A stretch of 64,000 nucleotides of DNA from Psammoneis japonica (lineage: Eukaryota): assembly GCA_008632985.1 (NCBI GenBank), contig QPGO01000104.1, forward strand, positions 186,001-250,000, written 5' to 3'. The notes below the pieces were generated by a model. The model did no database searches and was not told the DNA's origin. It was given only the letters and a program-made list of their open reading frames with translations. Below are positions 2,283 to 48,540 of this stretch, piece after piece. The position numbers were made by a program, and so were the translations under genes. How positions within the stretch are numbered: position 1 is the first letter of the stretch; each line of letters opens with the position of its first letter.

Positions 2283-3849
2283 ACCGTTTCATTGAGTCTT
2301 TAGCTTTTCACGTACAATTGTAACTCTATAGCGTCAGACCTACATACTTTCTTTGTTCTTCTGGATGTCCTTCGAGGACGATAAAACTTAATGTGTCACT
2401 GTGAATGGGAATGAATCAGGGTGAATGGCAAAACTGCAATGCACAACTTGATCGGGACCAAAAGGTGGTAGATTTCTGTTGCATTGATGGCAACTTTGCC
2501 AGGCCGAGGCAATCAGCAACAAAAAGTTTGAGGTTAGGATGATGCAAAGGGCACCCTCAAGGTGTGAAGAGGAGACAAGTGGTCATGTGGGGACGCTGTT
2601 CCAGTGATCCCAGTCCAGCAAGCCTCTTTTGTGGAGAAGCAGAAGGACATGTGTTCACCCCCAAGGGAGACAGAACATCAATGCTGTTCCTCCTTCTAAG
2701 GCTCATTTGCAATCTGTGGCAGAGTTTGATGATGCCAAACCAATCTTTGAAGAGAGCTGATTTGTCAAATGTCAAAGGCAAGAGTGTCTTGGTTTTGGCA
2801 TTTTCAACCAGAGTCTTGACATGCTGTTGGTGTGTTTGAGAGTTGCCAAGCTTTGTGAGATCCCCATCCATTGCAGACTTGCCAGCCTCAAGCCAAGGAT
2901 CTTAAACTTTCTTCATCTCAGCCACTGCTTTGTGCCCAGCTTGTCTGGTTCATTGTGAGCCTTCAAATGGTGCACAGTGCACATTGGTTGACAGAGAACC
3001 GTCCCTGCCAGTGCACTTTTCAGCAGCAATCACAGCATGAATGAGGCTTTTCCTGGCACTTGCTGCCACCAACCTGCCCACTTGCTGCTTCAAAGCTTTG
3101 GCTGTTCAATCCATCATGATGTGTGTGGAAGCTTCAAAACACAGTGGAGGCGGCCATTGTTGTGGTGGTTGTGCTGCTCCCCAGTTGTGCCATGGCAGTG
3201 GCAATCAAGTCCTTGTGCACCACAGGCAGTGGCTCATGGCACATCTTCAACCACTTCCCCTTCATGGAGTGGGTGGATCAAATGGGCTCCTGCCATGGCA
3301 TGTCAATGATGGCAAAGTTTGGTCTGCAACAACTTGATGAAAAGATGGGAATCTTGTGGACCTGCATCAATGAGGTGACCTTGCTCTTGCCACTGTCTTT
3401 AAAGTCCAAGGGCTTGAGCTGCTCCAACCCCACAAGGCACTTGGCAAACATGCCTGCCCTTTGATGTCACCAGCAAAGTTGGCACCTGCAGATGAAATGG
3501 AGCCTTGTTGGCACCAAAGGTGTTTCGCACATTGGAAAACCCAAGTGCAAGACCTGGGGTGGAAAGCGGTGACACAGAGAATGCAACAGCAGCTGTGCCC
3601 ACAGCTGTCTGCACTCCAGTCTGCCCCTGAGGGCACAAAGTGGGCAGACACAACCCATCAAAGCCAGGGGGCTTGGCAATCCTTTGCTCCAATCTGACCA
3701 TTGCACTTTTCTCAACAGCAGCTCTCAAGTGGCTTTGAGACATTGTTCCCCACAATCCCAGATCCTTGTGACACATGCTGGGGATCAATGTTCCTCAACA
3801 ACAGCTCTTGGAAACCAAGCATGTGCACCAACTTAGAAGTTCTGCTGAG

Positions 3850-4960
3850 AGCACAGCCACCACACCAAAACATTGCCACTCTCCCGCTCATTGTTTCCTC
3901 AGCTTTCAACATCTTGCTGGCAATCAGGTCACAGCCTCTGCACCAATGCCGCCCACTCCTGTGCTGCTCACTCCTGCTTTTGCTTGTTGATTGGAAGTGA
4001 GTCCATGCCCCCACACTTGCCAGCCACACGTGCCTCTGTGACCATCTGAGCAGGCTTGGTGAGAGCATTTGCAACCATTGAGAGCATTTGCAACCATGTC
4101 AGCCATGTCATCAACAAAGGTGCCATCAGCGTGAAAGGCCAGAGACCTTCTCCAGTGTGTCGCACCACTTTCTTCAGCCAACTCTCTGTGTTCAATGTCA
4201 ATTTCTTCAAGCAAAGCAATGTGTTTGCTTGTGAAGCCAATTGGCACAACAACCAAGTTCTGGCGCTGCTCACCACAATCTCTGGAAGCACATCATTGGT
4301 TTGCAGACAAAGCCATTCAACAGGACCCACCCAACTTTGGCAGCTCAAATGAATTTTGATGCCGGCCTTGGGCCCAGGAAGCAATTTAGATGTTTTTCCA
4401 ACACAATCCTGTCTCTGTTCTTGACATGGGTCCCCCACATTGATGTAAAATTTTGGCACCCCATGAGCAGAAAACAGCACATGGCAGGCACATTTCTGCC
4501 CCTCTGCCGTGCCCTCTACAATTTCTTCAGGCATGAAGACTCAAGCTCTTTCTGAACAAGGTCTGCCATTGCCTTGGCACAACCTGGCCTGTCACACCAC
4601 AAGGGGACCACCGTGTGAACCAATTTGTTGGGCTCAAACCAATCTGTGTTCTTGGCAAAGATCTCCTGCAAAATTTGCCAAGCAGGAGAATGACAAAAGC
4701 ATTTGTGCCATCCTTTTGAATCTGCTCTGAAGCATCCTCAACAAATGAGTGCCAGCACCACATCACAACACATGCCTTGACATCTGGGGGTCATGTCGTT
4801 GCTTCAAAGAGTGACTCATGAGATTCACCTGTGTGTTGGAGCACTTCAGGATTGAAGGTCCCCCTCTGATTGATTTGCAAGCAGCCCTTGATTTGGGAAC
4901 TTGCCATTGTGACATTGTCCAAGCAATCAGTGGACTGCAATGGTGCCAGTGGTTGCAGCA
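3850..4960 (-). pseudogene. hemH: Ferrochelatase pseudogene (plastid type, with C-terminal CAB/LHC-motif remnant)
   Basis: Frameshifted fragments: PKSRAACKSIRGGPSILKCS, VVPLWCDRPGCAKAMADLV, VLFSAHGVPKFYINVGDPCQ, LSCQSWVGPVEWL, VVVPIGFTSKHIALLEEIDIEHRELAEESG, AEETMSGRVAM. Confidence 0.9.
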
Positions 4961-6299
4961 GTCAAACAAGAATGCCATGGTCTGAAAACATGTTGCACAG
5001 CTCACCTGTCAGAAGGTGGCAATTTTGGCATCTGTGCCTGTTGAGCTCAGCTTCTCACTTCTCTTTTGTCAAGTGTCAACCCCTGTGTGCATTTCTGCAC
5101 GTGCTCTCACACCAATTTTGCCCTTTTCAGATGGCATTTTGCTGTGTCCCCCAGCACCCTTTGGGCCACTTCTGTCATTGGTGTGCCCTTGTTTTGGCAT
5201 GATGTGCAATGATTTTCAGCAAAAATCCATGCCTTGTGGTTTGCGTGCTTGTTGTCTCGGCAATTTGTTGCAGATTCAGTGCATTTTCTGCACAGGATCC
5301 ATCGCAAGTTCCGCGCACTTCACAAATGCCCGCCCATGTTCACATTGTCTTTGATGCAATCATCTTCTGTCCACACCGTCATCCCACCACATTTCTTTTT
5401 CTCCTGTTGGCTTCTCAAGTCCTTCACCTCATGTGGTGCAAGTTCTGCCCCTCTTGCTGTGGTGTTTTCAAGTGCTTGTTTGGACAAACCATTGGCGCCA
5501 CTTGATGGCCATCCATTTGCTGCACAGATTGGCATTTCTGTGCAAGATTTGGCATCAATTCTGCGTGAGAATGATGTTTCTTCCAACGCCCTTCTCATCA
5601 CATCATCAAGGCTCCCTGTTTCACACATGCAAGTCCTGAACACCCCCTCTTTTCCCCACTGGCCTGCCAACCATGCTGCTCTGAGCAGCCAGTGGCTCAA
5701 TTTTGTTCCGGCGCATCAGGTGTGAAACTCAGTCAGTCTTTGTTGAAGACAAGACTCATCCTTGGAAGCAAGTTTTTTTCAGAGTTTGCACTGACTTTGT
5801 GTCCTCATGTTGACATGGCTGTCCTTTGTTGTGTTGGTTTGGGTGCTTTGCATCCTCTCCAAAAGAAAGCAACGACCTCAATTCTGTGCAATTGCATCTC
5901 AACCAGTTGTCTCCATTGGGTGCCTCCATCCAGAAGCACCGTGCAAACTTAAAATTGGGTTTGAGTTTTTCTTTGAAGCAAATGGCAAATGACCTGTCCA
6001 CTGCCTGACCAACAAACCAGCCAACAACTGGCCAACACAAAAAAAGTGTCCTGAAGAATCGCCAGCCACTGAGTGGTTCAATGAAATCTTGCACCCCGCA
6101 CCAGTGGTGGGAGGTCCAAGTGTTTTTTTCAGAGGAGGAAAAAGCCCCTGTGCTTTGGCCATCTTGGTTTTCAAAGAAAGCCAGAGCATCAAGTCCAAAA
6201 AGAAAGAAAAGCAAAAGACCATGCCCAAATGGTGCAAAAACATGGAAAATGAAAATTTCAACTGATGTGCCTTTGCAAATTCTTCCATGAGCAGGTGTG

Positions 6300-8250
6300 A
6301 AATGCACCAGTTCTGCTGGAATCGATTTCCGAGTGGAAGCAACTCAATCAGAGCAGCACCTCAAGATGGAACCCTGTTTTTTTGTCTGCAAGACAAGAGG
6401 ATTTGTTCTGATGCAATCCATTTCAAAAGCCTCAGGACCAAGGACTCCACAAGTGCACAGCATCATCAAAATGTCTGCACCAAGTCATGGTTGGATAGAA
6501 TTTCAGGTCACGAGTCAATCAGGTCCAAGAAACACATCTGCTGTGCAAGGAGAGACCATTGGAGAGTTTTTAGAGACCAAATCGACAAGCCTTGAGTCCA
6601 AAGAGCAAGAAGGAACCATTGAAAACTACCCCAAGAGTCTCTCAACTCATGCCTTCCGAGAAATTACACTTCAGAATCAGAGTTGTTGTTTTTGAGACGA
6701 TCTGAAGAAACCAAAGGCTCTCAGCAGCAAGAAAGTGCCTGTTGGACCCAAGAGGTCAATGAAGAGTGTCTGTGCGACCCTTCAATCGACTCTAAGTTGA
6801 ATCTGGTGGGAAACCAAGCGCTGAGCCATCAGCCATCACTCGCACCGCAAGGATGGCAGCATCAGTCTGCTGTCCAAAATGACGAACTGCTGGAACACAC
6901 CCTTGACAAGCTGATTGAATTTTGAGCAGTCCAGAGGTTGTTGAAGACGTCCATGACAAAAAAATGTCAAATCAGACTCTGACAGCAAGGTTGGCTCCAA
7001 AACCAAAATGGCTCCAAGTTTGGTTCCGAAAATGGTCTCCTTTGTGGCACCTGAGCTGTCCAAAGTGAATGAAAAGTGCCACCTTTGAAAAAAGAACACC
7101 TGCATCATGGATTGAAGCCACTCTAAAAACAAAGTGGCAAAAGAGTGCAAGGGCAGCTCTGAAAGAGACCCAAAAATACAAAGCTCTGATGGCAATCGCA
7201 CACGGTCGTGTGACGACAGCAGAAACACCTCTGTGAAAGAGGAGTTGAATGCCACAAGGACTGAGCAGTTCACAACAACATTTAAAATGAGTTCCTTGGC
7301 ATGGGAACAAAAAAACAAGAGCAAAATTGTGACTCCAAAACACTTGGTGAACAAAACCATCAATTTGGAAAAATTGATCTGATCGATTCCGATCAAAAAA
7401 TTTGTGCCGCTGGAGGAGCACAACTCAATGCAGGACGTCTGGCAACCCAGAAAAAACACCACAGCATGTTGCACCAGTCCTGTCCTCTTTGTCTGTGTGA
7501 GTGCTTCTCTGAGAAAAGCAAAAAACAAGCTTCAACGCCGTTCTTCTCAACAAAGAACATTGTCAACCACAACTTTGCACAAAATCATGCGGAAGTTGAG
7601 AATGAAGAAATCCTCCACCAAAACTTGGGAAACAAAGGGTGGACTCTTCACGACTGACAGTCGCTGTCCAACACAGTTCTCTTTGTCTGAACTTGACAAG
7701 CATGTGATGACATCAATGACAAAGTGTGTTTGCAACACATCATTCTCTTCAAGTTCACATGATGTGATCAATTGACATGACTTGATGCTCAGTCTTGCAA
7801 TCAAACTGGGCTGTGCAAATGAAGAAATCAAATTGGAAGAAGCAGCTGCCCTGCAAAGAATGTTGTGCACTCTTTGATGCTGATGTTTTCCAGCTGAAAA
7901 CTGGTCACATTGAAAAATGTGATGACGTGAGTGGAGTCAATGACGGAACGAATGGTCCTCGACTCACATTGTCACACTGTTCATCACAATGATGTGACAG
8001 CTGCGGCAACTCATCTGACTCCAGAGGAGCAGGATCAATTGAGCTTCCTTTTAAAAAAAGATTTGAGTCTCTTTTTGATGGTTCTCTGGGCAAGTGGACC
8101 GGAAAACCTTGCAGTGAAATCTGGTGCAAAACTGCATCACACAAAAGGTTTCCTGTTTCCACAAGCCTTGGAGGCAACTTGCAAGGAGGTCGAAAGGCTC
8201 TGCAAGCCAAAAATCCTGAAGAAAAACAAACCACTCTGAGCTCTTCCCCA
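6300..8250 (+). mobile_element. Degenerate Ty3/gypsy gag-pol remnant (protease to start of RT)
   Basis: HDVI..HDLM (cf. protease YDxIIGRDL) near 7760-7790. HLTPEEQDQLSFLLKK..LFDGSLGKW..KEVERLCK..ILKK at 8010-8230 matches the pre-RT region of diatom gypsy pol. Left boundary approximate. Confidence 0.65.
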
Positions 8251-8351
8251 GTTTCTGTGCATGACTCAAGCACACCCATTGTCCGAAGGGGGGCACAACT
8301 CCACACCCAGATGCAACACTGAGTCCCAGCGACATCTGCTGACCAGCAGAG

Positions 8352-8748
8352 GACGCGCTCCAGCTCTGGGTGGGACCTTGCACCACTGCACTGTGACATC
8401 AACAGTTTTTTGGATCGCGTCGCATGTCACCCACGCACATTTCTACGTGTTGTGTTCTCCGAAATTGTTTCATGCTCCCTGTTTTGCGAAGCCAAAGGCT
8501 TTCCATTTTCAACATTTGTGAGAATGAAAATGTGCTGGGTGTTTTCTTTGATGTCTGAAGAACACACCCGGGCAAACTGTTGATGATGCACTGCAAGCAT
8601 GGAGGAGGAGATGCTTTCGTAAAATTGCCTCTTTTTCTGTTGGCGATCATTCACATTTTCATTGCAGCAAAAATTCACTGCAGAGCTTGCACGCAGAATT
8701 CTGCAGGCCCAATGTCACACGGAGTCCCGCCTGGGACTGGAACCCATC
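8352..8748 (+). mobile_element. MITE family A, copy 1 (~397 bp)
   Basis: TIRs GACGCGCTCCAGCTCTGGGTGGGA / TCCCGCCTGGGACTGGAACCCATC with 4-bp TSD AGAG. Near-identical to 48769-49162 and 57477-57874. Confidence 0.9.
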
Positions 8749-8829
8749 AGAGCCACAGAAAAAGCAAAATGATGCTGCGCATCTGAGAGGAAATGAAGCA
8801 CAGAAGCTTTGGAAAACAACAACAAACAA

Positions 8830-10685
8830 GTCCCGCATTTCCATGTTTTTGTGTTTTCCCGCATTTCCATGTTTTCGTGTTTTTCTGCATTTCCATGTTT
8901 TTGTGTTTTCCCGCATTTCCGTGTTTTGGTGTTCCGTGTTTTTGTGTTTTTCCATGTTTCCTTGTTTTCATGTTTTTCCGCATTTTCGTGTTTTCGTGTT
9001 TTCCTGCATTTCCATGTTTTCATGTTTTCCTGCATTTTCGTGTTTTTGCATTTTCCCGCATTTCCGTGTTTTCCCGCATTTCCGTGTTTTCCCACATTTT
9101 CGTGTTTTCATGTTTTCCCAAATTTCCGTGTTTTTGTGTTTTCCTGCATTTCCATGTTTTCGTGTTTTCATTGCATTTCCGTGTTTTCGTGTTTTCCTGC
9201 ATTTCGGTGTTTTTGTGTTTTCCCACATTTCTGCATTTTTGTGTTTTGTCGTGTTTCCATGTTTTGGTGTTTTCCCGCATTTCCATGTTTTTGTGTTTTT
9301 CCGCATGTCTGCATTTTCTTGTTTTCCAGTGTTTCCGTGTTTTTCCGCATTTCCATCTTTTCATGTTTTCCCGCATTTCCGTGTTTTCATGTTTTCCAAC
9401 ATTTCCGTGTTTTTGTGTTTTCCTGCATTTCCATGTTTCCGCTTTTCCTGCATTTCCTTGTTTTCGTGTTTTCCCACATCCCGCATTTCCGTGTTTTCAT
9501 GTTTTCCAACATTTCCGTGTTTTTGTGTTTTCCTGCATTTCCATGTTTTTGTGTTTTCCTTGCATTTCCGTGTTTTCGTGTTTTTGGGCACGCTGAATTA
9601 AAGTCACGCATTGGGCACATGCCCTCACTCCACTTTTGCCCCCGAATGGCCAGATCTGTAAAACGGATGTTTCTGTAAAACGCGCACGCAATTGGCGTGC
9701 ACGAACAGTCAAAATGTGCATCCGGCGGCAAGACAAGGGAATCGAACACGGCCCGGCGCAAGACGGACAGGTCTCACGCAGAATCCTGCGCAGACATGAG
9801 GTGATGAGCCAACCCATGTGTTTTGCACGACAAAGCACGTGTTTTACAGATCAACACGGTTTTACACCATTGCCCTCCCTCCCCCACTTTTCTCTGGAGG
9901 GTGCGCCCAATGCGCGACTTCAACTCAGTGCACCCTTTGTGTTTTCCCTCATTTCCGTGTTTTTGTGTTTTCCCGCATTTCCATGTTTTCCCACATTTCC
10001 TTGTTTTTGTGTTTTCCAGGGTTTCTGTGTTTTCATGTTTTCCCGCATTTCCGTGTTTTCGTGTTTTCCCACATTTCCTTGTTTTTGTGTTTTCCAGGGT
10101 TTCTGTGTTTTCATGTTTTCCCGCATTTCCGTGTCTTCGTGTTTTCCCGCATTTTCGTGTTTTCGCACATTTCCATGTTTTCGTGTTTTCCCATGTTTTT
10201 GTGTTTTCCTGTGTTTCCGTGTTTTCATTTTCCCGCATTTCCCTTTTTCATGTTTTCCCACATTCCTGTGTTTTCGTGTTTTCTCATGTTTCCAGGTTTT
10301 TGTGTTTTCTCGCATTTCCAGGTTTTTCTGTTTTCCCTCATTTCCGGGTTTTCATGTTTTCCCGCATTTCCTGGTTTTCGTGTTTTCTCTCTGCCATTCA
10401 TTGCAACGCCAGAGCACAATTTCGCGCCTTTCACAATTTCCTGTGTTTCCGTGTTTTTGTGTTTTCCCACATTTTCGTGTTTTTGTGTTTTCCTGCATTT
10501 CCGTGTTTTCGTGTTTTCCCACATTTCCGTGTTTTGTGTTTTCCCACATTTCTGTTTTTTTGTGTTTTCCCACATTTCCGTTTTTTTGTGTTTTCCTTGC
10601 ATTTCCGTGTTTCAGTGTTTTGGTGTTTTCCCGCATTTCTCCAGGTTTTTGTGTCTTCCCGCATTTCCGGGTTTTCTTGTTTTCC
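8830..10685. repeat. Satellite/minisatellite of 8-9-bp subunits (~26-bp higher-order unit TTTTCCCGCATTTCCGTGTTTTTGTG), interrupted by a MITE
   Basis: Directly visible tandem arrays at 8830-9585 and 9936-10685. Confidence 0.95.
9586..9935. mobile_element. MITE with ~35-bp TIRs (GGG...CCC), PIF/Harbinger-like
   Basis: Left end GGGCACGCTGAATTAAAGTCACGCATTGGGC; right end reverse complement GGGTGCACTGAGTTGAAGTCGCGCATTGGGC. Flanked by TTT/TTT inside the satellite. Confidence 0.8.
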
Positions 10686-12021
10686 TTTGATTTTGTGTGG
10701 TCCAGCAAAGGCTGCAGCCCTGAGCAAAAACAATGTGGCAGAGAAATCAACAAGCTTTCAATGAATGAGTTCCGGCACACAATGATTGACAAGGGCCACC
10801 ACAGCAAAGGATTCACTGCCATTTGCATGGCCCAAACAGCACCCACTCCATCAGCAACTCTTGGTGTTTCCAAAAACAAGCACGACATTGCAGTGGACCT
10901 GTTGCACAAGCTTGTCTCTGCTTCAAGTGACAAGGGATCCTTTCTGTGCCATTTCAGGGATGAAATGAACAAAACCTTTGCATCGCTCAAGCACGCACCC
11001 TGCCTCCTGCAACATGACTTTCTGGCAAGACTTGGTGCAGCACCAAGGAATGTTTGGCACCTGCATTTTGATTGCTGCTTTTTGGTTGGAACAAAGCAAC
11101 AACAATCACAAGAAACAAGAGCACCCCCATCCAGTGGCTGCAGTGCAGCTCAACAACTTGCCCTCATTCAGTCTCGCCACATGAACAATTCTGGTGTTGT
11201 TTCATTTTTCATGTGCCCTTCCTCAATGCATCCATGGTTTGTTCATTTCCTTTTTAATCCACCTGGCATGTTGGTCTGCTGTTGATTCCATTGGCTCTTG
11301 TTTCAACGAGTTGTCACCAAAAACATCAATTTAAACAGCTGCCTGTTGTGGTGCCTGCGGGAGCCACAAATCCATGTTTTTGATGTCTTTCTCATCATTT
11401 TCTCCTGCTTGCAACTGCTTGCTGTTGTTTTCTTGGGTCTTTTCTTGGGTCTCTTCTGTCCCGTCCATGTGGTCCCAGAACTCCCTCGAACAAACTTCGT
11501 TGCACTCATCTGCGTCCTTGCTCAATCTCTGCTTGTGTGAATCTTTTTTCCCAATTCTTTCTGCCACGGGTGCATTTTTTGGCAAAGAGCTTTTGGGCAG
11601 GAAAGACACTGTTAGCCCAGCAATGTACCTCCAGTGAGCTAGCCGAGATGTCCCGCTCTCGTTCTTCTGTTCAACAAAGCCGACACGTCCATTCGTTGAA
11701 AATTTCACAATGCCCTTGCCACATCATGGCCTCAGTCATTAAGAAAGGAAAAGTCTTAGCAGCAAACGACACATTCCAAACAGCTATGACGATGCTTCTG
11801 ATTCCTCGGTCCTAAATTGCCGCCTTTGTTTCGTGTGGCTTCGTACGACGGGGCGCCCTCATCGCATTTAACTAGTGAAGCAGAAAGAGTTGCTTTTCTC
11901 TAAAATTCTTCTCCTATGAATTAAAAAGTTAACTCTTGGAAACTTCCTTTGCTACGGACACAAACAAAAGGAATAATATTTTTGCATATCACTTCACAAA
12001 AGCATTCAACCACCAATGTCT

Positions 12022-19599: not shown

Positions 19600-22500
19600 A
19601 GATAGACAAACAGAAAATGCCAAACTGCTCTGTCAGCTGTCCGTCAACTTGCGCGGGATTTCATGTTGCCCCAGCGCAGCCCTAGCACAGTCATCTCACA
19701 ATCAGACATTTTCACCAATCAACTGCAACTGGCAGGGCTTGTGCCATGGTCCGTGAAAAGTTCTGTTGTGGCTGGGAGAGCAGAAGAGAGTGCATCAAAA
19801 ACAGGGCAAAAAACCAGCCGAGCATCGCGCACAGGAGGTGCTGGCACGCAGCACAAGTGCGCCCACTCCTTGCTGATGCAGCAAAGCCACACACTGGCCT
19901 CTGGCACTGGACAGCACAGTGCTCCTGCTCACACACACCTGTGTGGCACATCACATTTTGGCACAATGCAGACATGACCAGATGCCGTCATGCAAAATCT
20001 CAAGCCAGTGTGTGAGCAGTCCACTGGTGTTGCCAGAGGGACAGCTCACAGACACTCGCTGTCAAATGACAGCACTTGGCACAACATCTTGTGCAGCACT
20101 CAGAGCAAGGTAAAAGAGTTGTTCATGCAGCAACTCTGGAGAGAGAGCATGGTGACAAAAGACAAAGCTGCAGCCCGATGAGGTCATGATCACTCTTTTG
20201 AAGTTGACCATGGGTCCAGAGAGGCAACAAAATGACACACCACAGTCAAATGGTGTTCCCTGCAAAACAAAGCTGTGTCTGTTGGAAATTTGGCTGCTCT
20301 TGCTTGCTGTTTTGCTCTTGGGCTCACACAAAGTGCAGCAAAAAAAGCAGGCGGCACTGCGCTGGCTTTGCAGCAAACCGCTGCTTTCTCTTGCACTCTT
20401 CACAACAACTTGAATCCTTGCCCACATCTCTCTGGGATGAGCCACCCTCTTTTGAATGTGCGCGCTCATGACCTGGGTGCTGCAGAAGCCCAGCAACTGG
20501 CACCCAGCTCTGTCACACTTCCAGCTGCTCCCAAGGCATTTTTTGGGTTTTTTGAGCAACAAAGCTCTTTCCACTTTGTGGATGTCAACACAAGGTTTGT
20601 GCAGCTCCTGAGACGGGGCTCTGGCATCTGTGAGTGTGCTTGTCTTGATCTGCACAGCAAGTTTGACTTTTGTGCATTGTCAAGTTGGTTGAAATGTTGT
20701 CTCTCCTTTTCTCTCCAAGTCTGACCTTTGCCTCTTGTTTGGGTTTGGAGCTGGGTGGCAGACTTCCCCCCGCAAATCATGTCAGGGAAGCAGCGACATG
20801 TCAAGGAAGCAGTGACATGTCCCAGTGACAGGCGACATGCCAAACAACAATTTCATTGATTCATGGGCCAACCTCAGTCAAGTGCAATTGTCTTAAACTT
20901 TGCCACCAAGTGCAGCCAAATGTCTTGTTCATGCTCCAAGAAACATTTTCTCAATGAGAAGCAAGCTCCCAAAAAGTGATGCCCACATGTTCCAGTGCCA
21001 GGTGACATGCCAAACAAAATTTTCATTGATTCATGGGCCAACCCCACCCAATCAAGTGCAATTGCCTCAAACTTTGCCATCAAATGCAGCCAAATGTCTT
21101 GTTCATGCTCCAAGAAACATTTTCTCAATGAGAGGCAAACTCCCAAAAAGTGATGCCAACACAATGATGAACATGACCACACACACAGTGGTGGCTGCTT
21201 TCCACCTTGTGGCAACAAAAACAATGCCGTCAGCAGCACCATCACATTTTGCTTGGTCTGCAGGTGCCATTGTTCTTTTCATCAGTGAAATGACTTTGGA
21301 CTTGCAGAGCTTTCAGCATCTTGAAAGTGATGGAGTTTTTGCACCCTCCTCTTGGGCCATTTTGACCCCATGCTCTGAAAGTGTTCAATGTGAAAATGAT
21401 GACATTGAGTCCACTTCACATCCAAGTCAGCTCATGCAGTCATTTCGGTGTCACAAAGATTCATTTCAGTGACCTTGTGCACTGACTTTTGGGTGATGCA
21501 TCAAGACCTGCAAAATCCTTTGAACACAACAGCTCCATTTTTGCATGAAATGATCCACAATTCAACATTTCCTTCACAACACATGTTGCATTGGCTTCAT
21601 GCCTTTAACCAGCACTGCTTCCACAGTTGTGAAGTCAAAGAAAAATTTCAAGAACAACCACACACTGCCATGGCAACTTCTTGTGCGAAAAACACATGTG
21701 TCTGGACTGGGCACGGCTTCACTTGTTTTCCATGCTGTGAACAATGGTGTGCAGCCAGGCTCTCAGATGTGCCACAGCCAGCTTGCAAGCACAGAGATTT
21801 GAGCCTCAGCTGAGATCTGCAGTTTTGTCACACAGAAGCTGCCCAGCTGCAGCCATGTTGTCAGATGACAACTCTGCTTGTCTCTGTGCCATGCCTGCTC
21901 CATCCCCAACATGGCATGCAAGATCAACTCAAAAGCAAGTTTTCTTTCCACTGTCATGATGGCAAAGCCTGGTGAATTTGCAGCTGGCTGCTTGCAGGTG
22001 TCATTTGCTTCTTCTGCCACAACTTTGGCAGCAGACATTTGCTGAACAAGGCACCACATGGTCACCTGGTTTCCTGCCAATGCACACACCCCTTGATGGT
22101 GTGTTCAGCAGCACTTCATGGAGTGGTGCAAGCAAACACAAGAGCAGCAGATGCAAGCTCAGCAGGCAGCAGCAAGCTGAGGTCAAGCCACAGGTGCTGA
22201 TGCTTGCCAGAGCACCTCTGAACAACTGCACCATTGTCGTCATGACCACCCAACTTGGCAACAACAACTCCATCTCTCTTGCCGCACTGCACCCTGGGCT
22301 TTCCTTTTCTTGGTCTTTTTCATGCAAAGAGATGAGCTTCACTTGCTTTCATTGTTGCTGCCCATTTTTGCAGCATTTCTGTCTTTTTTGCTCTGTTGAC
22401 AACTGCCCTTCTTGCCCTGAAACGAGCCGACAACAACGTGCATGCCACATTGCTGCTGAGTGTGTGTCAGATCTGCACAGAGCAGAGCACTGGCACTGGG

Positions 22501-22860
22501 TGCCTCCTCCCACAGTGACATGTGCTGCTGCATTTGCAAGGAATCCTGGTTGGGGCATGCCAGAGGCTTGGGGCATTGTGTCAAGTTGGCTGTTGTTGCA
22601 CTGGGCTCCATTCTCAGACAGTGTCATGCCTCTTGGAGAGCACTGTCCTTGACATGGCTGTTTTGCTGCTGGCACACAGAGTGACCCTCCTTGGTGACTC
22701 CAGTCCATTGTGCATCAACAACACCTGCAGGGGTGAGTGCGCTGGTCCCTGGCTTCCCAATGAGCCCCCTCGGGTTGCACAGCTCCACATTGTTTGCTTG
22801 CTGCGGCAAACTCGAAGGCACAATTTTTTTGCATGTTGTGTGCGTTTTTTTCTCGGAAAA
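19600..22860. other. TpA/CpG-depleted degenerate repeat block 2 (unclassified debris left of the YR element)
   Basis: TA almost absent, TG/CA excess and no credible ORF. Confidence 0.75.
20834..21158. repeat. Tandem duplication of ~170 bp
   Basis: GACATGCCAAACAA...CCCAAAAAGTGATGCC occurs at ~20834 and ~21004. Confidence 0.85.
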
Positions 22861-23428
22861 TGCAGCTGTCGCCACTTTTCTTGTTTGTCCTCAGCAGAGT
22901 GATTCAAGCTAGGAGACAAGACACAACAGGACCAAATCCAACAGGCAGGAGTGGAGATGGCTTTGCTGGCACTGTGGGAAGCCCTGCTCCCAAACCCAAG
23001 CTGGACGGTGGGCCAGAGGGCAGGAGAGATGGGAGCAATTGACTGTCTAGAGCCCGGCTTGCTGTTGTTGTTCTCAAAAGAATGAAAACAATGAAAGCCA
23101 GAGAAGAGTCATTGTAACTCCCGTGCAACGTGCGGCACTTTCAATGGGAAGGAATTGGGAATCCCTCTTTGTGGATCTCACGAGGACAGCGGCTGTTGCC
23201 ACTTTTCTTGTTTGTCCTTGGCAGAGTGATTCAAGCCAGGAGACAAGACACAATGGGACCAAATCCAATGGGTGGGAGTGGAGATGGCTTTGCTGGCACT
23301 GCAGGAAGCCCTGCTCCCAAACCTGAGCTGGACAGCAGGCTGCCAGCACCACCCACAACAGCACAGCAATGCAGTGAAGGGCCTGTGACTTGGGCGGGAG
23401 GGTGGGCCACGTCTGGCGGGTGTGGCGC

Positions 23429-24600
23429 TCATGGAGGGTTGACGGGGACATCGGCGTTCGGAAGGAGAACGAAGTTGCCACCTTGGAGCATCCGTTGAGA
23501 GAAATGGCGCACAATCGGTTCCGCCTGAAGGTGGAGGTGCCAAAGCATTTCGTCAGAGTGCCAGCAACCCAAGAGACATGATGCAATGTCCGTGTCCACT
23601 CGGGCACACAGCAACCCCATGGTGCCTGCAGCTCGAAGACTGCGGGCGGAGACATTGCCAGGTGTGAAACCGAGGTTCTGAGGGCCGAGGGCCAGGACAG
23701 TGGTGCGGAGGATGGCAGTGATGTCGGCAGGAGTGACAAGGTGCCAGGCACCATTGTGAAAACAAACAGACAACGGAGTGTCAGGGTGCACTCCATGGGA
23801 GTGGAGATGCAGAGCTCGGCGTGCTGCAGCCTTGACAGGGCAAAGTTGAGGATGCCCAGAGAGGCCTTGACCTGTGACTTCACCCACCATTTTTCTGGGT
23901 GGTGAAATCAAGCGTGGCAAAGGTGGCGGCATTGAGACAGGCAGCAGGGCACGTGAATAAATCCAAGTGTGCTTGACCAGTGCTCAGCCGCAAGTCGGCC
24001 AGATGGAACGGGGTGGAGTCTGACAGTGTTGCAGTGCATTCGCCGGGTCACATCAAACAAAAGAATGCAAGTGCGATCATGTCGGCAATGGCCATGGTGC
24101 CGGGGTGGTGACCAGTGGCCACCAATGCAAGGATCCAATGTAGGACAGTGATCAGGATCAGTTTTACTTGGTCTGGCAGAGGATCCTCTTTCTTGCAGTG
24201 ACGGATTTGTCGGGTGAGACGGAAATCCATTTGGCCTTGGGGTGTTTTGCGTGAGTCTGGGGCCCCCATTGCAGAAAACGTTTGTCCAACCGACCGCACG
24301 GCATCTTCAGCAGTGCATGCTTGGATGGGATGGCCACGTGGGGTGATTTGGCCAGTTCGATGTCAGTGCATGAAGACTTGGAGGAAGAGAACTGGGTCAT
24401 CAATGGCTTGGAGCAATGGGTCGATGGCCATTTCGGCACAAAATTCAGTCCATTTTGTCCAATGGGTGTCACAGGCGGTGGCGCGCGAAGGGGCAATGGA
24501 GTTGGCGACTGCGAATTGTGCAGCGCCGAGATCACGTGGGAATGCAGCTCTCGTGGCGGCGTCCACAAGCACCAAGATTTGGTCTGTGGACAAAAAGCGT
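23429..24600 (-). pseudogene. Tyrosine recombinase of the Ngaro element (frameshifted, catalytic Tyr lost)
   Basis: VSARSLRAAGTMGLLCARVDTD...LLGCWHSDEMLWHLHLQA (cf. HSLR/RSLR...GRWxSDxxxxY). Confidence 0.85.
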
Positions 24601-24666
24601 TAAAATGTTGCAAAAAGGCAGCAGTGGTTGGTGATCAGAGGCGGGAGGCATCGTCAGCGGCAGTGT

Positions 24667-26520
24667 TCAAAGGCCCCGGCAGGTGATCATGCAATGCAAT
24701 GTGGCAGTGATGACGTTGGTGACAGGCGGCACAGCGCAGGAGCTTGGCTTGGGGCTTGGCAGTGGTGGACGAGCCCTCACGTTTCCAGCACATTGTGCCA
24801 AACTGTCAGTGCGCTGCAGGTTGGTGCGTTCACGCAGATCAAAACAATCTGTGGTGGCATGGGTGTGGAGCATGCTGCCTGCTAATTCGAGGTCAGTGTT
24901 GGTGATGGAACCATTGGGGTTGTCGAAGGTTGCCAAATCCCTGGTGACATCGTGGGGAAAGGGCATGCGCCACACCACGGGGCCTGAATCCTGCTGGTGC
25001 CGGGGCCGACCTTGGGGTGAATGCTTTGCCCGGGCCGCCCGGGGGACAGCAGCAGGAGTTGGGATGATGACACCGCCAGCACCATGGCCAGCGGCGTTGT
25101 GGCAGCCGTGCACGGCAAAGTCCAACTGTGCAAGCTCTTGGATGCGCACTGGGTGATCTTCGATGGTTGTGGTGAGATCGCGAAAATCATCCAAGACACT
25201 GTGCACAGTGGGAGTCAAACGGACACGGGAGTCAGGTGGGGTGTGACGGAGAGTGTCTTGTGGCTAAGAGAAAAGGCCTCGGGAGCCGGGTGTGGCAAGC
25301 AAGAGCGAACGGAGTTCTCCAAGCAACTCATGACAGTCGGTGGTGGTGGCATGTTGACGGGTTCGAGGGAAGTCCTGGGCAAGAGTGTCGTGCAGCAGGC
25401 GATTTAAACGTCGGGTGGTGAGACGCAGTGTCACAGCTTTGGTGTCGATGAGCCATCCGAGGACCTCTTTTTGTGTGGACCAGGAGGCATCACCTTTGCA
25501 AAGCTTTTTGACAGAGATCGGTTCGGTGCGATGTGGTGAGTCGTCTGGGGCCAAGGGATGAAAGATGTTGTCAATTGCCACCATCAGTGTGCAATGCACG
25601 TTCAAACGGGCAGCGCGTGAGCCCTGCGCGGCCCCGATGCAGTCATCAACATGTGTCTCCACACAAGCAAGGCGACGAGGACGTCAATGTCCAAGGTGTG
25701 GGTCCGGGTCATTGGGCATTGGGACGGCGATGGTGTCGGGTGGCGGCGGCAGTGTTGGTGGCAACGGCGGGCAATGACTCATGGCAACATGCTCCAAACG
25801 ATGAGGTGGTGCCTGGCAGTTGCACAGGAGGAGTTGGTTGGCAATGTCAGCACCCGTTTCGGTGGAGGTGCTAAAAGCAGGTGGCAAATTTTTCCATCCC
25901 ATTGGCAACTTGGCAGGGATGGCGATGAGTGGTGGCTCACCTGGCAGACTGGGGAAGGCAACAGCTGGGACCTGTGCACGGTCCGGTGCCAACGTCATGT
26001 GGCAGAATCTGTTGGACATGTCGATTTTCATCAGATGGACGTGTCCTTTGTTGGGGTTGGCGAGGAGGAAGCATCGCAGGAGCCGGTCAAGAGCTCTCCT
26101 GAACTGCATGGATTCCACTGGCGTGTTGGGCTGCGCAGCATCGTTGGTTCCGTAGAAAGTGCAGTCTGCGATGGGCCGGGGACATCGTCCATGCTGGGGG
26201 ACTGCTCCAATGGGACTGATGTGGAGTCCTGGGGTGTTCTTCACGTCCTTGCAGGGGACTACAACCCAAAAGCCCTTGTCGACACAGTCGGCCATGTCCT
26301 CACACAAAAACTCAACACACTCGCAGGCGGACTTGTGCGGCCCCCTTTGGATGCTGGCGTCTGGTTTGGCGGCACTCCACGGTGGGTCGGCAACGGTGAC
26401 TGGAATGCCTCGGCGTTTACAACCCTGGAGCATGCAACGGGCAGGATGGTCGTGTGCCCCATGCATGGGGCCCAAGTCACCTCGACCACGATGGTGTTGC
26501 AACAAGCAGCTGAGGCCTCT
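24667..26520 (-). pseudogene. Reverse transcriptase / RNase H of the Ngaro element
   Basis: ISPIGAVPQHGRCPRPIADCT, HLMKIDMSNRFCH, LPMGWKNLPPAF, THVDDCIG (YVDD), KEVLGWLIDT and ITNTDLELAG. Confidence 0.88.
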
Positions 26521-29500
26521 GCGACGCCAATGTGACATGCTCACCCAATTCATCAGTGTCAACTGATTCGGCAATCGCTTGCCCACGTTCCGTGGTGCGG
26601 CATTGCCGCTTCCCAAATCTCTCCGTCTGCGGGGTGATGGATGCTGCTCACTGGCAGTGAAAGAAGGCTCTCGGTCCCGAGTCCCCGAGCTGGGGCCGTT
26701 GCCAATGACCCATTTGGTTGTCCCCAATGCTCCGTGGCCCAAGTGAAAAGTGCATCCTGCTCCGCTTGACTGTGGCCGCCACGATGATCGGCACGGGCAT
26801 TGCAGCTGGAGTTGCGCTGTCCCTTTGGGTGGAACGGGAGGCACCGAGGATTCCCACTGGCGTCCATCGGCAGGGCAATGTTGGCCGCAGCACACCTGTC
26901 CTTGACTGCACGGGAGCGGACCCCCGGCCTGGCGCGAATCTCATCGAATCACGTGTCGCAGTGCTCATTGCGAATCAACATGTTGGCACCTGGGCGTGCC
27001 GGTGGTGGGGGCGCGGCAGGTTGCTGTGGTGCAGCAAACGGTTGGGGTGTCGCCGGTGGAGCTTGGTGTGGCAAGACGGCTGTGGGCAAGTCACACCTCC
27101 AATGCATGGCCCCTTTGGCGGCCAAGCGAACAATGGGTTGTCCTTCAAAGGGCAAAGGTTGGTCAGCACGTGCCTGGTCAGTGAACCACTGCCCGATCTC
27201 TGTCTGGGCCCAACATTGGAGGTCTGCCAGCAAAGTGGGATAGCGCACCATTTGTCATGCCAGCTCGTTGGCACAAACATCCATCGCGCGGCGTTGTTGT
27301 CCCAGCCACGTCGTGACCGCATGCTGGGTTCCTAGACTGGTGGCGAGGATGACACGGTGACCGTCACAGGAGTGTTGGGCTCCTTGCATTGCAGTGGTGA
27401 CCCTGGCTTTGTCTGGTGCCTCCAGGATCTGAGTGTCTGCTGCACTGGGCACATTGTCTCCACAATGGATCTGGCGACAGAGCGCATTGCGGCACGCAAT
27501 TTGCCATTCTTGCTCGGGCATCGTGAGACTGAAGATGAAGGGATCAATCCCTTGGGTGAGGTCATCTTGATTGTGTCTGGCAAAATTCTGTTGGAGCAAC
27601 TTGGACACCAAATTTGCCAATGCGGGCACGTTGAAATGCACCCCAAGGGCCTCACGTTGTTCGTTGACACTGCCTTGGACTGAGGCCACCCGTCCGGGCT
27701 TGGGCGCAGATGCCAAGTCGGCCCACATCTGCGGCAATTGTGTCTCTTGGTAGATCTGACACAAGCACATGATGACGAGGGTGGCTTGCACACCAAAAGC
27801 CTCCCATGGGGTTTTGCCACGTGCACTGGCTTGTGAGCGTGCCTGCAGCGACCAACCTCTGTTGACGCTGCTCTGCCGTGAGGTTGTCAATGGCAGCAAT
27901 CACGGGCTGAAAATGCTGCAATGTCTGCCCTTGTTGCCCCACATGATTGGGCAAATCCCGATTGACCTTTCTCTCAAAATGCCGAATGAGGGATTCATTC
28001 GGCGGCCAGGGCAGAGTGGGCCAGTCCCTGATCACAGCCAAGGCCACATGATCCTGCTGAGCAGCTGCACATGCCACCTTCAGAAAATCCAACAAGGGGC
28101 GGCACTCGTTGACTTGATTTGCCGCGGTCGCCGCACCATGGATTCGTGTGAAGGCCTGTTTGGGTGTCAGCGCAGTCGAGAGCAGTGGATTGACACAACT
28201 GAAAGGCACGAACATGCAATTGCGTGTCCGCACCTCTGCTGCATTGGTGGTCTGATCGGCAACATGGGGGTGAAACCCAAGTGGGTGTGCCGTGATGGCG
28301 GCCAACATCGCGGCGGCGTCTAACACGTGTGTGCCATTGGGTGCAAGATTCGTCATCTCCACCGGGAACTCGGCCAGTTGATGCTGGTTGACCGCTGGAT
28401 CACCTGCAATGCCGCAGGTGCACCCGTCCCAGGGTTGCGCTTGTCCCACTGCCGTCGTGGGGCACGTGGATGGCCTGTGCGAGATTTGGACACATCCGGG
28501 TTTGTTGGCTTGGCCTGGCAAACGACAGTGCATGGCAATGGCCATTGGCATGTCGTGCTCTGATGCGGCGGCAATCCTGGTGAACAAAGCTTGCGGGTTG
28601 CACCTTGACAGTCCATTGATGCCGGCTGCGAAGTCCACCATGGCTTCTTGGTGCTGTCCCTGGTGCAGGTCATGGTTGGCTGCTCCGCAGCAGTCGGCGC
28701 ACATCCGCACTGCCTGCGGTTGCAGCAGCACTGGCACCACATTGGGTCCCTGTGTGGCCGGCACCTGCTCAGGAGCTTGTGGAGGTGCTGGTTGTTGTTG
28801 CCCAATGGGCAGTTGCTGTGCCAGTTGATTCATGGGGTTTGCTGTCCTTGCGGCTTCGGCTGTGGCTGCTGTGGCCCTGGAGCAGGCTGCCCTGGCTGTT
28901 GGCCTGCTGGTGGCACCGGATGCATGGGCGGTGGGGTGGCACGTTCTGATGAGCATTTGTGTTTCCTGGGTCCGGTGGCGCGCCGGTGTTCAACATGATG
29001 TTTCGAATTGGTTGCACTCCTGCTTGTGCGAAGCAAAATTGAAAAGAAGGCAACAACAGCGGCGGAGGTCTCCTGCGTCGAACTCAACAGCGATCAACCA
29101 TCTAGAGCCCGGCTTGCTGTTGTTGTTCTCGAAAGAATGAAAACAACGAAAGCCGGAGAAGAGACATTCTAACTCCCGTGCAATGCACGGCACTTTCAAC
29201 AGGAAGGAATTGGGAATCCCTCTTTGCGGATCTCACGAGGACAGCGACCTAAAAAGTAAACCAGGCCTGCGGGGGAGCATTGACCACTTGTCTTTCTTTG
29301 TGGGTGTGGGTGTGTGCCGTTGCATGCTGCATTGCCTGTACGTACGTAGGGCCCTACCGCCGGGGCCGGTGTCGGCATTGTGGCGGCTGAGTGGCGTGGC
29401 CACCGCACCGGTGACGCGGATGACCGTTATATTTGATGTCTCATGCCATTTTTGGGGCTGTAGCGAGGTGCACGGACACTCTTTTTTTTCCAATTTATCG

Positions 29501-32299: not shown

Positions 32300-34700
32300 C
32301 TTGAAGCGATGCACACAGCCCGCAAATGACAACCCCGGTTCATGATCCAAAATCGTGCCTTGAGTGGGACCAAAGACACCAGAAATTGTTGCCAAAAGTC
32401 ACTTTTCTGAGGTCCATTTGGCATCATCTGTGGGCATTCTTTCCAGACTGTTGCAATGTGAAGCTGGCAAAATTGCGCTGCATCATCTGCAAATTTCAGT
32501 TGACTTGTGTCTTCACGTTAACTTTGCTGGTGTGAAAAGTTGCAGTTGTTGTGCTTTTGTGCGGAGATGTGGGAGGAGTTGCAAAGAAGGAAATTGTGGT
32601 CACAACCGCACCTGTGTCAAAGGAGAGCACAGTCAATGGCGACAATGACGGGGGTTCCAAGTGCACTGCTGTGCAAAAAAGCAAGCAAAAAGCCACATTT
32701 CATGTTGTGCACAGTGCTGACACAAGATCTGTTCAGCTGCAAAGGTGGGTGCATGATGCTCACTCAGATCCTGGCTCTCAGAGGTGCAAGGAATGGGGCT
32801 GAGGGCAGTGTGCCAGTGTCTGGGAAGAGCAGAGAAGGTGGTCTGAGAGCACCACTGTGTGGACCAATGCAGCACTTCAGGGTGTGCATTTTTGGAGCAG
32901 TGTGCGCTGCAAATGGCCAAATCAAAAGGCTGTGCTTTTTGACAAAATTTGGTTGCAGCAAGTCTCTCTTGCACTTCCTTTGAGAAACCACAAGAACACC
33001 AGCACTTGCAACTGTGTTTGCAAGCACTTGTCACCCCTTCAGGTTGCATGACAAGAGTGGATTAACTGGCAAGCAACCAGTGTTTTGCTTTTGCAAACAC
33101 TGTCTTTGCACTTGAACCTCATTTGCCACACTCAGACAAACAAAATCAGATGCACCACCTGTTTCTCTGTGCACGGCAAAGTGGGATCACAGCAACACAT
33201 AAAATCCACCTCTTCCTGTTGCTTGAAGACTTTGTTTGCACATTTGGATGGAGTTGCCCCAGCCAGCAGCCCCACAGCCAGACATGACCACAAATCCTGA
33301 CAGGACTTGGTGCACAATGTGGTCTTTTTTCATTTGCAAAGAGCTCTGTTTCTGTGGGAGAGCCAAACAGCACTGGCAACAAAAGCAGGGCCAGGGGCAA
33401 AAGCCACCAGTGCCGTGCATCATGGCTTTGTAAAAGAAGGGGAGACTTGGCTGGCTCTGTGCTCAAGCTGAGGCAGGGCACTGGAAAGCAAGGGAGGGGG
33501 GCTTGGCTAAAGTGAGTGCACAGCAGATGTAAAAAGGCACAGCATTGAAGCATTTCTCTGCTTTGGGGCACCTGCACTGGGCAGAGCATGCTTTCATCTC
33601 AGCAGCAACATGCTGTGCATGGAGAGCCCCAGAGAAAGAGTGGCTGGCAAAGCACATGCAACACACACAGGGGCTTGCATGGTCAAGAGCGGCGGTGACA
33701 AAAATCTGTGCCATCAACACACTGGAGCATGGCAGCACAGCATCATCTCAAGTTTCATGCATCACACAGGCTCCAGTGTGAACATTGGGCACCAGTGCCA
33801 GTGAGAGGAGGCAAGTGTGAGCACCCCCATGCAAATGCATCCTGGTGCTCAGAGTTCAGAGTGCACTCATGGGTGACATGCAGTGCTGCATCAATGGGTT
33901 GCACTGGACAGAAGATGGCTCCCTGCACTGTGAAAATGCTGAAGAGAGAGACAGAGATGTGGATGAAAGAAGCCAGGCTTTGTTTTCTCATTTTGTGGTT
34001 GGCACAAGAAAGTCAAAAGAGGCTTTTTTTGGGTGTCCATCTGCTGCCCAATGGTTGTTGCACTGACATGGCATTGCACTGAAGTGGTTGTCACTTTCTG
34101 CTCTTTGGACAAGTGCTGCTTCATCGTTGCACAAAATGAGTTGTCTGCAAGCTGCAGCACAACAGCGTCTTTAAACACCATGCTGTGACCTGTGACATTG
34201 GATCAGCTTTGCCTCCCCTCATGTGATGAAATGCTCCAATGTCAAGAGGCTTTCTTCACACAAAATGTGTTGTCTGCAAGCTGCTGCAGCACAAGGGTGT
34301 CTTTAAACAACATGATGGCTGCTGTGACATTGGCGCCAGTTTTGCTTCCACTCCTGTGAAAAAATGCTCATTTGTCTGCATGTCAACTCTGCTGCTTTCT
34401 ACGTTGGTGCTTGGCTGGACTTCTTGCTTCTTGCCAAGAACTTCCTCAATTGAAAAGAGCACAACTCAAAGTGACTGAAGGAAAATTGGAACCTGGCTGC
34501 CTCAGGCTTCTTCGTTCATCACATGACAACACAGAGCTCTTGCTCAAAGAAAAACCAATTCCATCCATGATGATTTGACGGTTGCCTGCTTTGCACAGCA
34601 CACACTTGAGATTAAATCATTCCATCCAGCCAACACCAGCCAACACTGGTGTCCTGCCAGACAGGTGAATGCAAGCATGGAGACCTGCGGATTCTTTCTT
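32300..34700. other. TpA/CpG-depleted degenerate block 3
   Basis: TA almost absent except in TTAA/TAAA contexts; Tyr-free spurious ORFs. Confidence 0.8.
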
Positions 34701-46620: not shown

Positions 46621-48376
46621 CGCGCGATTTTGCGGCCCGCATCTGGGCCGCAAAATTTTTATTGCAAATTTTTGCGACCCACATGCGGCCGCAAATTTGC
46701 CACAATTCTTAAAACGAAGCTTATCTCGTTGTTATTTTTGCGCGGGAAATCAATGTTGTAAGAGCGATGTGATGTCTTGTCATTTGTTGTTGAAAGTGTT
46801 TTTTTGCACTGCTTCCATTTTCGCATCGAGCATCGATCACTGTCAACATGGACAGCGAACGTGAGCAGAACACACGTGACGACGTATGTGAGTGTCCTTT
46901 TGTCATCGCTGACTGTCGTTCTGCCATTGTCTCTCTTATTTTGATGCTAACTGCAGACTGCTTTTTTCGTCTTCTGATTTCTGAAGCTGCCGTTGTGGCG
47001 TCATTCTGGGCTGCATTTGACAAAGGTTCGGAAGCGGCCATTCCAAGTGTGTCGTTCGTCCCTGCCGACGATGCTGTCACCGTAGTTGTGGACAGCGAAA
47101 AAGATGCTGACACTGCAGTGAAGGCAACGAAGGGCAGAATCACGCCCTTGGTGCGTTGCCGTGATTGTGGTGAAGCTCCCTGTGTCATGCCTGCCATTTA
47201 TGATCGCATGGTTTCGATTGGAGATGTTGGAGAAGAAATGGGTCTGAGCAACAAGCAGATCCGTTTCTCTCTCTACTGCGAGTCTATTTCTCTTCTGCAT
47301 GGATTCCTTGGTCGTCATCAACGTGTTGAGCTGCCGGATTGCATTCATCGTAAAATTCATGATCTGCACCCCCAAACCCGTGAAGAGCCGTGCACGGGTT
47401 TCAAAGCCAATGGGCAGGACACCAAGCAGCTGCTCGTCATGCAGTTGTTTTTTAATTTAGCCAAACCAATCTTGAAATCATCAACTGCTGGCATGCTGCG
47501 CACATCTTTGCAACAGTTGTAATTTTGCGGCCCACTAAAATGGATGCAACATCGCTGCGGAAATTGGTTTCTAATGGTTTTTCCTTGGAGAACAAATGTC
47601 GTTCCTCAACTGTTCCAATGGAGTTTTTATTTTGCCATCTGCTCTACTAAAACAGAAAATGGATGCAACATGGAGCACGAAATGCTAAAGGGCATCCGCC
47701 AGCACGAAGAAATCCACTCTGAATTTGTCAGGCTTGTCTTTGTTGTGTTGCCTGACGGGACAATGACGAGAACGACAGCTGACTCCACCCTCGTTGAATG
47801 TCAGATCGCCCCCCGGGATGAATGTACGACGAGCCGCAGCATTGAACTCGTTGCCGTTTGCTTTTCGAGGACACTCCAGCATCTGCCCGTGAACTTCCAT
47901 GCTGTCGATGCTTTCCTCTGCGGAATGGAGCGGCTGGTGTTGAGGATGCAAGCACATCATGTCAGAAACAATCAACTTTTGTTTGGCAAAGCTGAGTCGC
48001 ACTCGAGCTCTCTTGGCCACTGGCAACTCCACAGGAAGACTTGGAGGGGGGGCATGTGCGGGTGCAGATGGTGCTTCGGCAGCAGACTGCGACACCGGAT
48101 TTCGCGGCATGTCTTGAACAGGCGAAAAAGGCATGTCCGTTCCCACTGCAAGCAATGCTGACACATCTGGCACTTCTCTAACGATGTTGTCAGGCGTCCG
48201 AGATTGATGGAGTGAATGTCCTTCACCGGTGTGGCCCGCCGCAGGGTCGCCAAGATGAAGTGTCGATTCCTGTGTTTTCGGGTGTGGAGAATTCGACTGT
48301 GGGGTCAATTCATCGATTGTCTCTGTCATTGAAGATTTGAAAAAATTTGCGGCCCACACATGGGCTGCAAATGGCG
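46621..48376. mobile_element. Internally deleted piggyBac-like DNA transposon
   Basis: TTAA on both sides (46617-46620, 48377-48380). Imperfect TIRs CGC..ATTTGCGGCCC..TGGGCCGCAAA. Transposase fragment FIPGGDLTFNEGG..RHCPVRQHNKDKPDKFRVDFFVLADA at ~47690-47900 (-). Confidence 0.85.
46848..47522 (+). CDS. Accessory ORF in the piggyBac-like element with a Cys/His domain (C..C...PC...R..LY.....HG.LG...R..LP.C....I...P.....TGF)
   Basis: ORF track 46848..47522; the true start may be downstream. Motif resembles the P2X7-ballast/nanor-like domain (from memory). Confidence 0.55.
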   Translation: MDSEREQNTRDDVCECPFVIADCRSAIVSLILMLTADCFFRLLISEAAVVASFWAAFDKGSEAAIPSVSFVPADDAVTVVVDSEKDADTAVKATKGRITPLVRCRDCGEAPCVMPAIYDRMVSIGDVGEEMGLSNKQIRFSLYCESISLLHGFLGRHQRVELPDCIHRKIHDLHPQTREEPCTGFKANGQDTKQLLVMQLFFNLAKPILKSSTAGMLRTSLQQL

Positions 48377-48421
48377 TTAATGTCACACAATGCTTGTTTA
48401 ATGGGTCATTGTGTTTTATTT

Positions 48422-48540
48422 GTCCATGGATTAAAATCATTGCCACAATGGCAACGAATTCCTCGTAGATGATTTTTGTTCATCCATGGATTGAAATCAT
48501 TTTTGTGACAGAGTGATGAATTCCTCATAGATGATTTTTG
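48422..48540. repeat. Two ~60-bp direct repeats
   Basis: TCCATGGATT(A/G)AAATCATT...GAATTCCTC(G/A)TAGATGATTTTTG occurs twice. Confidence 0.7.

Follow-up and report, generated by a model that had tools for sequence, protein, structure and literature searches.

The T-rich tandem array in the 64,000-nucleotide stretch of Psammoneis japonica DNA analyzed here (contig QPGO01000104.1, positions 186,001 to 250,000; hereafter the window) is a non-coding higher-order minisatellite of ∼1.45 kb. It is a real but ordinary tandem repeat, unfit as a gauge of the TA-erasing mutation that marks its surroundings. With a probability of roughly 0.7, the array multiplied from a founder that was already free of TA and then lost CpGs by decay, and it most likely has no function and is selfish or neutral repeat DNA. 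Its subunits form a rough meter of CpG decay but no meter of TA loss, for which no more than one of the three slots could hold a record, and a saturated one. When TG and CA states are inherited from a founder, a tandem array in TA-purged DNA can mimic a record of TA conversion, and counting slot by slot exposes such inherited states.

Across the three blocks of the array (table 1), 129 of 164 T-run-delimited tokens are one of six cores (CGTG, 37; TGTG, 26; CATG, 24; CGCA, 18; TGCA, 15; CACA, 9), and TA, CGTA, and CGCG are all absent. These cores, and a T-rich strand skew (782 T and 103 A in 1,453 bases; AT skew of −0.77), had been described correctly in a sequence-only reading that derived positions 8830–10685 from one TTT(T/C)CGTA unit. 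That description of a satellite is apt for the three blocks and not for the MITE and the interruption that separate them. The repeat is also longer than the 8–9 bp then proposed. TRF reports a period of 26 with scores of 514 and 432, which are far above chance, and the unit consists of a 10-mer (slot A) followed by two 8-mers (slots B and C), as in TTTTCCCGCA TTTCCGTG TTTTCGTG at window positions 10038–10063. Slot order is kept in 107 of 123 classifiable neighbor pairs, and the T/C alternative in the proposed unit separates slot C (TTTT-led) from slot B (TTTC-led). In higher-order minisatellites and satellites, several copies of a short unit diverge and are then repeated together as one longer unit. 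Here, likewise, a trimer of diverged 8–10-base subunits is arranged head-to-tail in fixed order and was amplified as a 26-base unit, with slippage runs, internal duplications, and a transposon insertion, but the array is small, occurs at few loci, and resides in a genome where a process erases TA.

Table 1. Features of the window, by window position, and of the telomere-like tract found elsewhere in the genome, by locus.
Feature	Location	Strand	Description
TA-depleted domain holding the array	2540..11610	.	Sharp edges; 26 TA in 2697–11332, dense TA on both sides
Broken ferrochelatase copy, two frames	3927–4540	-	Inside the TA-purged domain
Dispersed-repeat relic left of the array	6234..8239	.	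Copies in C406 and C70 without the array; no credible Pfam domain
397-base high-copy MITE	8352..8748	+	∼25-base imperfect terminal inverted repeats; target duplication AGAG (8348–8351, 8749–8752)
Array block 1	8831..9585	+	∼29 copies of the 26-base unit; TRF 29.0 copies, score 514; in-register parse
350-base MITE within a slot-C subunit	9586..9935	+	∼35-base terminal inverted repeats GGG...CCC; 5 TA, 24 CG, 2 CGCG
Array block 2	9936..10396	+	Internal 78-base duplication with common rare variants
Non-array interruption, 40 bases	10397..10435	.	Sequence and token parse
Array block 3	10436..10690	+	TRF, token parse, in-register parse
Dispersed-repeat relic right of the array	11141..11565	.	
Telomere-like tract	L022:2849–2903; also L026, L027, L028, L029, L030, L035, L036, L037, L038, L148		

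Base composition predicts 55 TA in the array where none is observed; this expectation is an unfair null because the unit itself is without TA, and the zero is largely built in. A protein-coding reading of the array was rejected, as its long open frames are a consequence of lost TA stops, and a period of 26 is not a multiple of three. An argument from pseudo-replication was likewise dropped: identical stretches of 70 and 73 bases fall within the range simulated under independent CpG states (58–92), though local duplication within the array is still shown by common rare variants. No Rfam match reached the gathering score, and the 26-mer pattern had no match in metagenome and viral contigs. In a search of sequencing runs, one DNA run, which may be the assembly's own source, contains 0.74 of the sampled words and no RNA run is listed as containing them.

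The array shares its TA-depleted domain with a broken ferrochelatase copy, repeat relics, and two MITEs. TpA observed/expected ratios are 0.00–0.08 per kb across 3001–11000, and frames in 2560–8426 and 11334–11812 yield ferrochelatase fragments plus three weak Pfam matches below the cut-off. Judged from the domain edges and from copies of the 397-base MITE, changes of TA to TG or CA are confined to TpA and occur in repeat or foreign DNA, in blocks with defined bounds. More sharply bounded TA-depleted domains lie at window positions 20001–29000, 33001–34000, 39001–40000, 48001–54000, and 56001–58500. CpG observed/expected ratios range from 0.06 to 0.75 among them, which implies that TA and CpG losses are not tightly coupled.

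The 397-base MITE, 82 bases from the array and independent of it, is represented by 1,647 candidate copies in the genome, among them loci L041–L070 and L101–L118, and target duplications are seen at other copies too. We aligned 47 distinct copies, a similarity-selected sample made up of the best matches to the window copy and to a TA-rich copy. In the 1,222 cells of 26 TA columns, 452 are TG, 392 CA, 349 TA, and 3 CG, and the rest other; TA thus became TG or CA in 844 cells, and 25 columns hold both products at least twice. CG became CA or TG in 200 of 1,034 cells. Individual copies keep from 1 to 25 of the 26 TA, and TA and CG retention are correlated across the 47 (Spearman 0.51). The window copy retains 2 of 26 TA and 14 of 22 CG sites, and its TA loss is ∼5.7 times its CG loss on a log scale (2.56 vs. 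0.45). Conversion depends on context: of the two A residues at a site, the one with C after it changes much more frequently than its partner (GTAT, CA 130 : TG 26; CTAC, TG 74 : CA 12 in one copy set), and TA is often spared in GTAA, TTAA, CTAC, and ATAG. In a wider column set, CA accounts for 69% in copies not chosen by the window's copy and 85% in those chosen by it. This MITE is therefore a usable TA/CG meter, and its context bias must be reproduced by any candidate enzyme.

The endings of array subunits follow a different pattern. A wraparound parse, with equal scores for TG, CA, TA, and CG endings, assigned to slot A of the window 46 CA, 7 TG, and 6 other endings (n = 59), to slot B 44 TG, 3 CA, and 10 other (n = 57), and to slot C 50 TG, 2 CA, and 1 other (n = 53). 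Slot and ending are thus strongly associated (Fisher, p ∼1e-25), and the cores are not the free product of {CG,TG,CA} and {TG,CA} that had been supposed. The C1 array agrees (slot A, CA 27 of 31; slot B, TG 19 and CA 0 of 30; slot C, TG 26 and CA 1 of 30). Slot B of the C439 array is mixed (TG 6, CA 6, and TC 8; n = 23), which counts against our preferred explanation. A CGTA ancestor would place the same CG-TA-TT context in all three slots, hence like conversion would be expected in each. As a control, the four GTAT-context TA columns of the neighboring MITE family give CA 130 : TG 26. Slot A is compatible with this ratio (p = 0.67), but pooled slots B and C (CA 5 : TG 94, or 95% TG vs. ∼17% expected) reject it (p ∼1e-38). 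Conversion of CGTA unit by unit thus fails for the 8-mers because their endings contradict the ratio at true TA sites. In contrast to the MITE columns, slots B and C do not hold both products. Nor do homologous sites at slots B and C, where TA is 0, show the combination of TA, TG, and CA that marks hypermutation of the Bigelowiella type; slot A (CA 46 : TG 7), also with TA at 0, could be read either way.

In the three arrays, swapped endings occur in 11 of 107 slot-A subunits and in 16 of 178 slot-B and slot-C subunits (p = 0.83), the latter count including two window swaps that probably arose otherwise, one as a duplicated A end and one by deletion. Clean CA swaps occur in place in three window subunits of slots B and C. 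Of the seven slot-A subunits that end in TG, six are inside blocks and in slot-A position, five of them followed by a slot-B subunit, and their upstream bases differ. Unless it started from TA or CG, a swapped ending requires two changes, and the window's endings include no CG intermediate a single step away, a pattern that a TA ancestor would produce; this counts against the explanation we favor. Upstream bases resembling those of a donor slot were found in 5 of 9 TG-ended 10-mers (one a probable parse artefact) versus 15 of 84 (p = 0.02, artefact included), and weakly support copying between slots.

Relatives elsewhere in the genome may offer a source for these endings. The exact 26-mer pattern has 11 matches on three contigs, and all read CA, TG, TG even though TA was allowed. 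Among 552 8-mers in array context genome-wide, none ends in TA and 24 end in CG; neither TA-ended 10-mers (looser pattern) nor the exact TA trimer were found in the species' own assembly, which may be incomplete. The search for unmutated CGTA arrays that the sequence-only reading had recommended thus came back empty for the assembly, and a kind of array that it had named as contrary to its model exists. In the assembly consensus, C1:1185703-1186029 consists of (TTTTCGCA) in 41.8 copies with 100% match, a homogeneous CGCA core without TA. Paralogues of this (TTTTCGCA)41 array have 17 and 9 units and lie in a 6-kb tandem macro-repeat (95–98% identical), showing slippage expansion without TA. The macro-repeat itself (C1:1179560-1211785; L022, L132, L034, and L035) is non-coding, with a repeat length of ∼6 kb and copies that are 95–98% identical and all TA-purged; it was amplified after the TA purge. 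Pfam scans covered 27 of its 41 listed frames, leaving aside 14 that mostly overlap arrays, and gave no match.

The relatives also include a likely counterpart of the founder. In 8 of 11 anchored simple arrays, two 8-mers ending in TG and a 10-mer ending in CA form a trio at a fixed place. Six trios end TG, TG, CA, one CA, TG, CA, and one TG, TG, CT; the 10-mer thus ends in CA in seven of eight and in TG in none. The 256 regular 8-mers of these arrays end in CA (218), CG (24), or TG (14) and never in TA, and all 14 TG-ended 8-mers fall within the trio. Whether the trio is seed or relic of the 26-mer, its endings were inherited.

In our preferred explanation, the 26-base unit is a member of a family of TTTYCGCA-type 8-mer arrays found across the genome. 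Its founder trio, also present as a single copy in simple arrays of that family, already carried CA, TG, and TG. The trio would then have multiplied through slippage and unequal exchange, with copying between slots as the probable source of the ∼8–10% swapped endings. The CpG of each subunit has been turning into TG or CA, a decay that methylated repeat DNA of diatoms would be expected to undergo, and a MITE inserted into the array later. Domain-wide TA erasure presumably removes any new TA and would leave no readable record in the array.

Variation in the array is concentrated at CG and leads to TG or CA, with both strands affected. The first dinucleotides of 144 window subunits are CG in 62, TG in 42, and CA in 40, and 57% of CpGs have been lost. 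The proposal that CG was partly and TA fully converted therefore holds for CG, whereas conversion of CGTA copy by copy is not supported. Of 41 differences in the alignment of two recent C439 paralogues (95–98% identical), 25 are of the CpG type and none is a swap of TG and CA endings. CG is kept in 62 of 144 array sites versus 14 of 22 in the adjacent MITE, and on this lower retention the array looks older than the MITE insertion or decays faster. Deamination of methyl-C is the presumed cause of this decay. Repeats and TEs of diatoms are CG-methylated (DNMT5; PMC9998398), and the array would resemble such repeats in that each subunit loses CG to TG or CA at its first dinucleotide, a change that went on after a recent duplication. 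The available text of that source reports methylation, not decay.

The 350-base MITE inside the array is short and non-coding, has inverted ends, and is dispersed, with 22 candidate relatives scored, the best 91% identical. We take it to be PIF/Harbinger-like. Its own target duplication is TTT (9583–9585 and 9936–9938), and the flanks of its relatives fit a three-base TTA/TAA target in TA-converted forms (TTG..TTA at L152, TCA..TCA at L154, and a left CAA at L155). At these three loci, TA conversion is visible in the target duplications themselves. A MITE lies inside the array at all three sites of the 26-mer (L004, L006, and L009; C1 and C439), with different subfamilies represented, and 26-mer arrays may be favored or tolerated MITE targets.

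How the founder acquired its endings is a matter of judgment. In ours, a CGTA origin has somewhat less than even odds, and CGCG and ordinary point changes are each possible but less probable. A deep CGTA origin is plausible; so is CGCG, whose units actually occur. A telomere-like interstitial tract beside the simple arrays (table 1) consists of alternating CCCCAA and CCCTGA in a nearly identical pattern across copies and resembles a TA-converted form of a 12-base diatom telomere motif (PMC8329260). According to the available part of the same source, the telomere repeat of one diatom natively has TTGGGG as one half, and on that basis only the CCCTGA units point to TA. The pattern suggests that the tract was TA-converted before the block was amplified. 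If it was converted that early, the TA-erasing process probably reached the founder region as well. Several related array blocks lie near contig ends; a subtelomeric location was considered for them, but TTAGGG runs were absent from the contig ends, and no intact telomere run was seen at 18 stretch ends.

If instead the deep ancestor was CGCG, CpG decay in the founder would have produced CGCA and CGTG with no involvement of TA, and the recent history would be the same as in our preferred explanation. We regard this as possible, although doubtful. The 24 CG-ended units against no TA-ended units genome-wide fit it, as do the rarity of TA to CG (3 of 1,222 cells) and the frequency of CG to CA or TG (200 of 1,034 cells) in the MITE. 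However, only 4% of units end in CG, some of them at common positions or in slippage runs, and these may be derived; and since the purge would remove TA in any case, its absence does not favor CGCG.

Two rounds of conversion could in principle leave a layered record of TpA hypermutation. A founder edit would have turned CGTA into CGTG in slots B and C, the 26-mer would have been amplified with one TA per 26 bases in slot A, and that TA would have been converted later, unit by unit, until saturation. The strand bias invoked for such re-editing is the one seen in the MITE, in which A followed by C is hit ∼5 times as often as A followed by T. The CA to TG ratio in slot A agrees with it, as do the TG-ended 10-mers that sit in slot-A position with differing upstream bases and the lack of CG-ended slot-A subunits. 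Against it, the overall swap rate is the same in slots B and C as in slot A, and a single copying process thus accounts for all three; the assembly has no TA-ended 10-mer; and the simple-array trio ends in CA in seven of eight cases and never in TG. We consider two rounds unlikely, and give them the weight we do because evidence for copying between slots is weak. A saturated site would in any case yield only a lower bound on the rate. If the layered record were true, it would mean that the process returns to DNA it has already edited and has a part in forming new satellite units.

A function for the array, as a centromere-like or transposon-subterminal protein-binding repeat with the phase of CA, TG, and TG under selection, is improbable. 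The 10-8-8 phase is identical at three loci, and related arrays form large tandem blocks, several near contig ends. But the array is small, eroded, and interrupted by a MITE, and is restricted to three contigs, which speaks against the centromere-like role once raised for it. Placement inside a transposon, also raised earlier, is no better founded: the array flanks at the three sites (C104, C1, and C439) have no mutual similarity and no common terminus was found among them, copies of the left relic are without the array, and 27 scanned macro-repeat frames are free of Pfam matches. A carrier of the array, if there was one, may have decayed. Least credible of all is expansion of one 8–9-base CGTA unit with each TA converted independently and the array serving as a built-in rate meter for both processes, for which TG and CA as the two products of TA conversion, the shared TTTYCG stem, and the TA-purged setting speak, since endings are fixed by slot despite identical context, pooled slots B and C depart from the expected ratio, no TA-ended unit was found in the assembly, and a homogeneous CGCA array exists without TA.

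The TA-erasing process is interesting biology to which the array adds little, and it has a likely parallel in a distant system. In Bigelowiella natans, integrated viral DNA undergoes TpA hypermutation, with a de novo rate ∼1,000-fold above background in some lines only, and the available text of the preprint offers the hypothesis of a candidate DNA adenosine deaminase (bioRxiv 10.64898/2026.01.13.699255). As in that text, the domain and the 397-base MITE show TA changing almost exclusively to TG or CA (844 of 1,222 cells; CG, 3) in bounded repeat blocks. The process described here differs in belonging to another lineage, in having MITEs, repeats, and a gene copy as targets, in being far nearer saturation, and in being accompanied by loss of CpG; and the array differs in being without a TA record. 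Among the papers that the literature search covered, none described a TpA-erasing process in diatoms.

Repeat-induced point mutation (RIP) of ascomycetes changes C to T and gains TpA. The available part of the Bigelowiella preprint likewise gives RIP as C to T (bioRxiv 10.64898/2026.01.13.699255). Both RIP and the present process are bounded, repeat-associated, and consist of dinucleotide-specific transitions, but RIP creates TpA, whereas here TpA/ApT is 0.00–0.10 in the domain and the TpA observed/expected ratio of 0.00–0.08 is the reverse of what fungal RIP leaves.

A search of the 91-Mb assembly for silicon transporters gave 24 matches, all above the family cut-off, in keeping with a diatom. 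One of the regions, C38:226311-230342, has a single open frame of 1,511 amino acids with three silicon-transporter domains.
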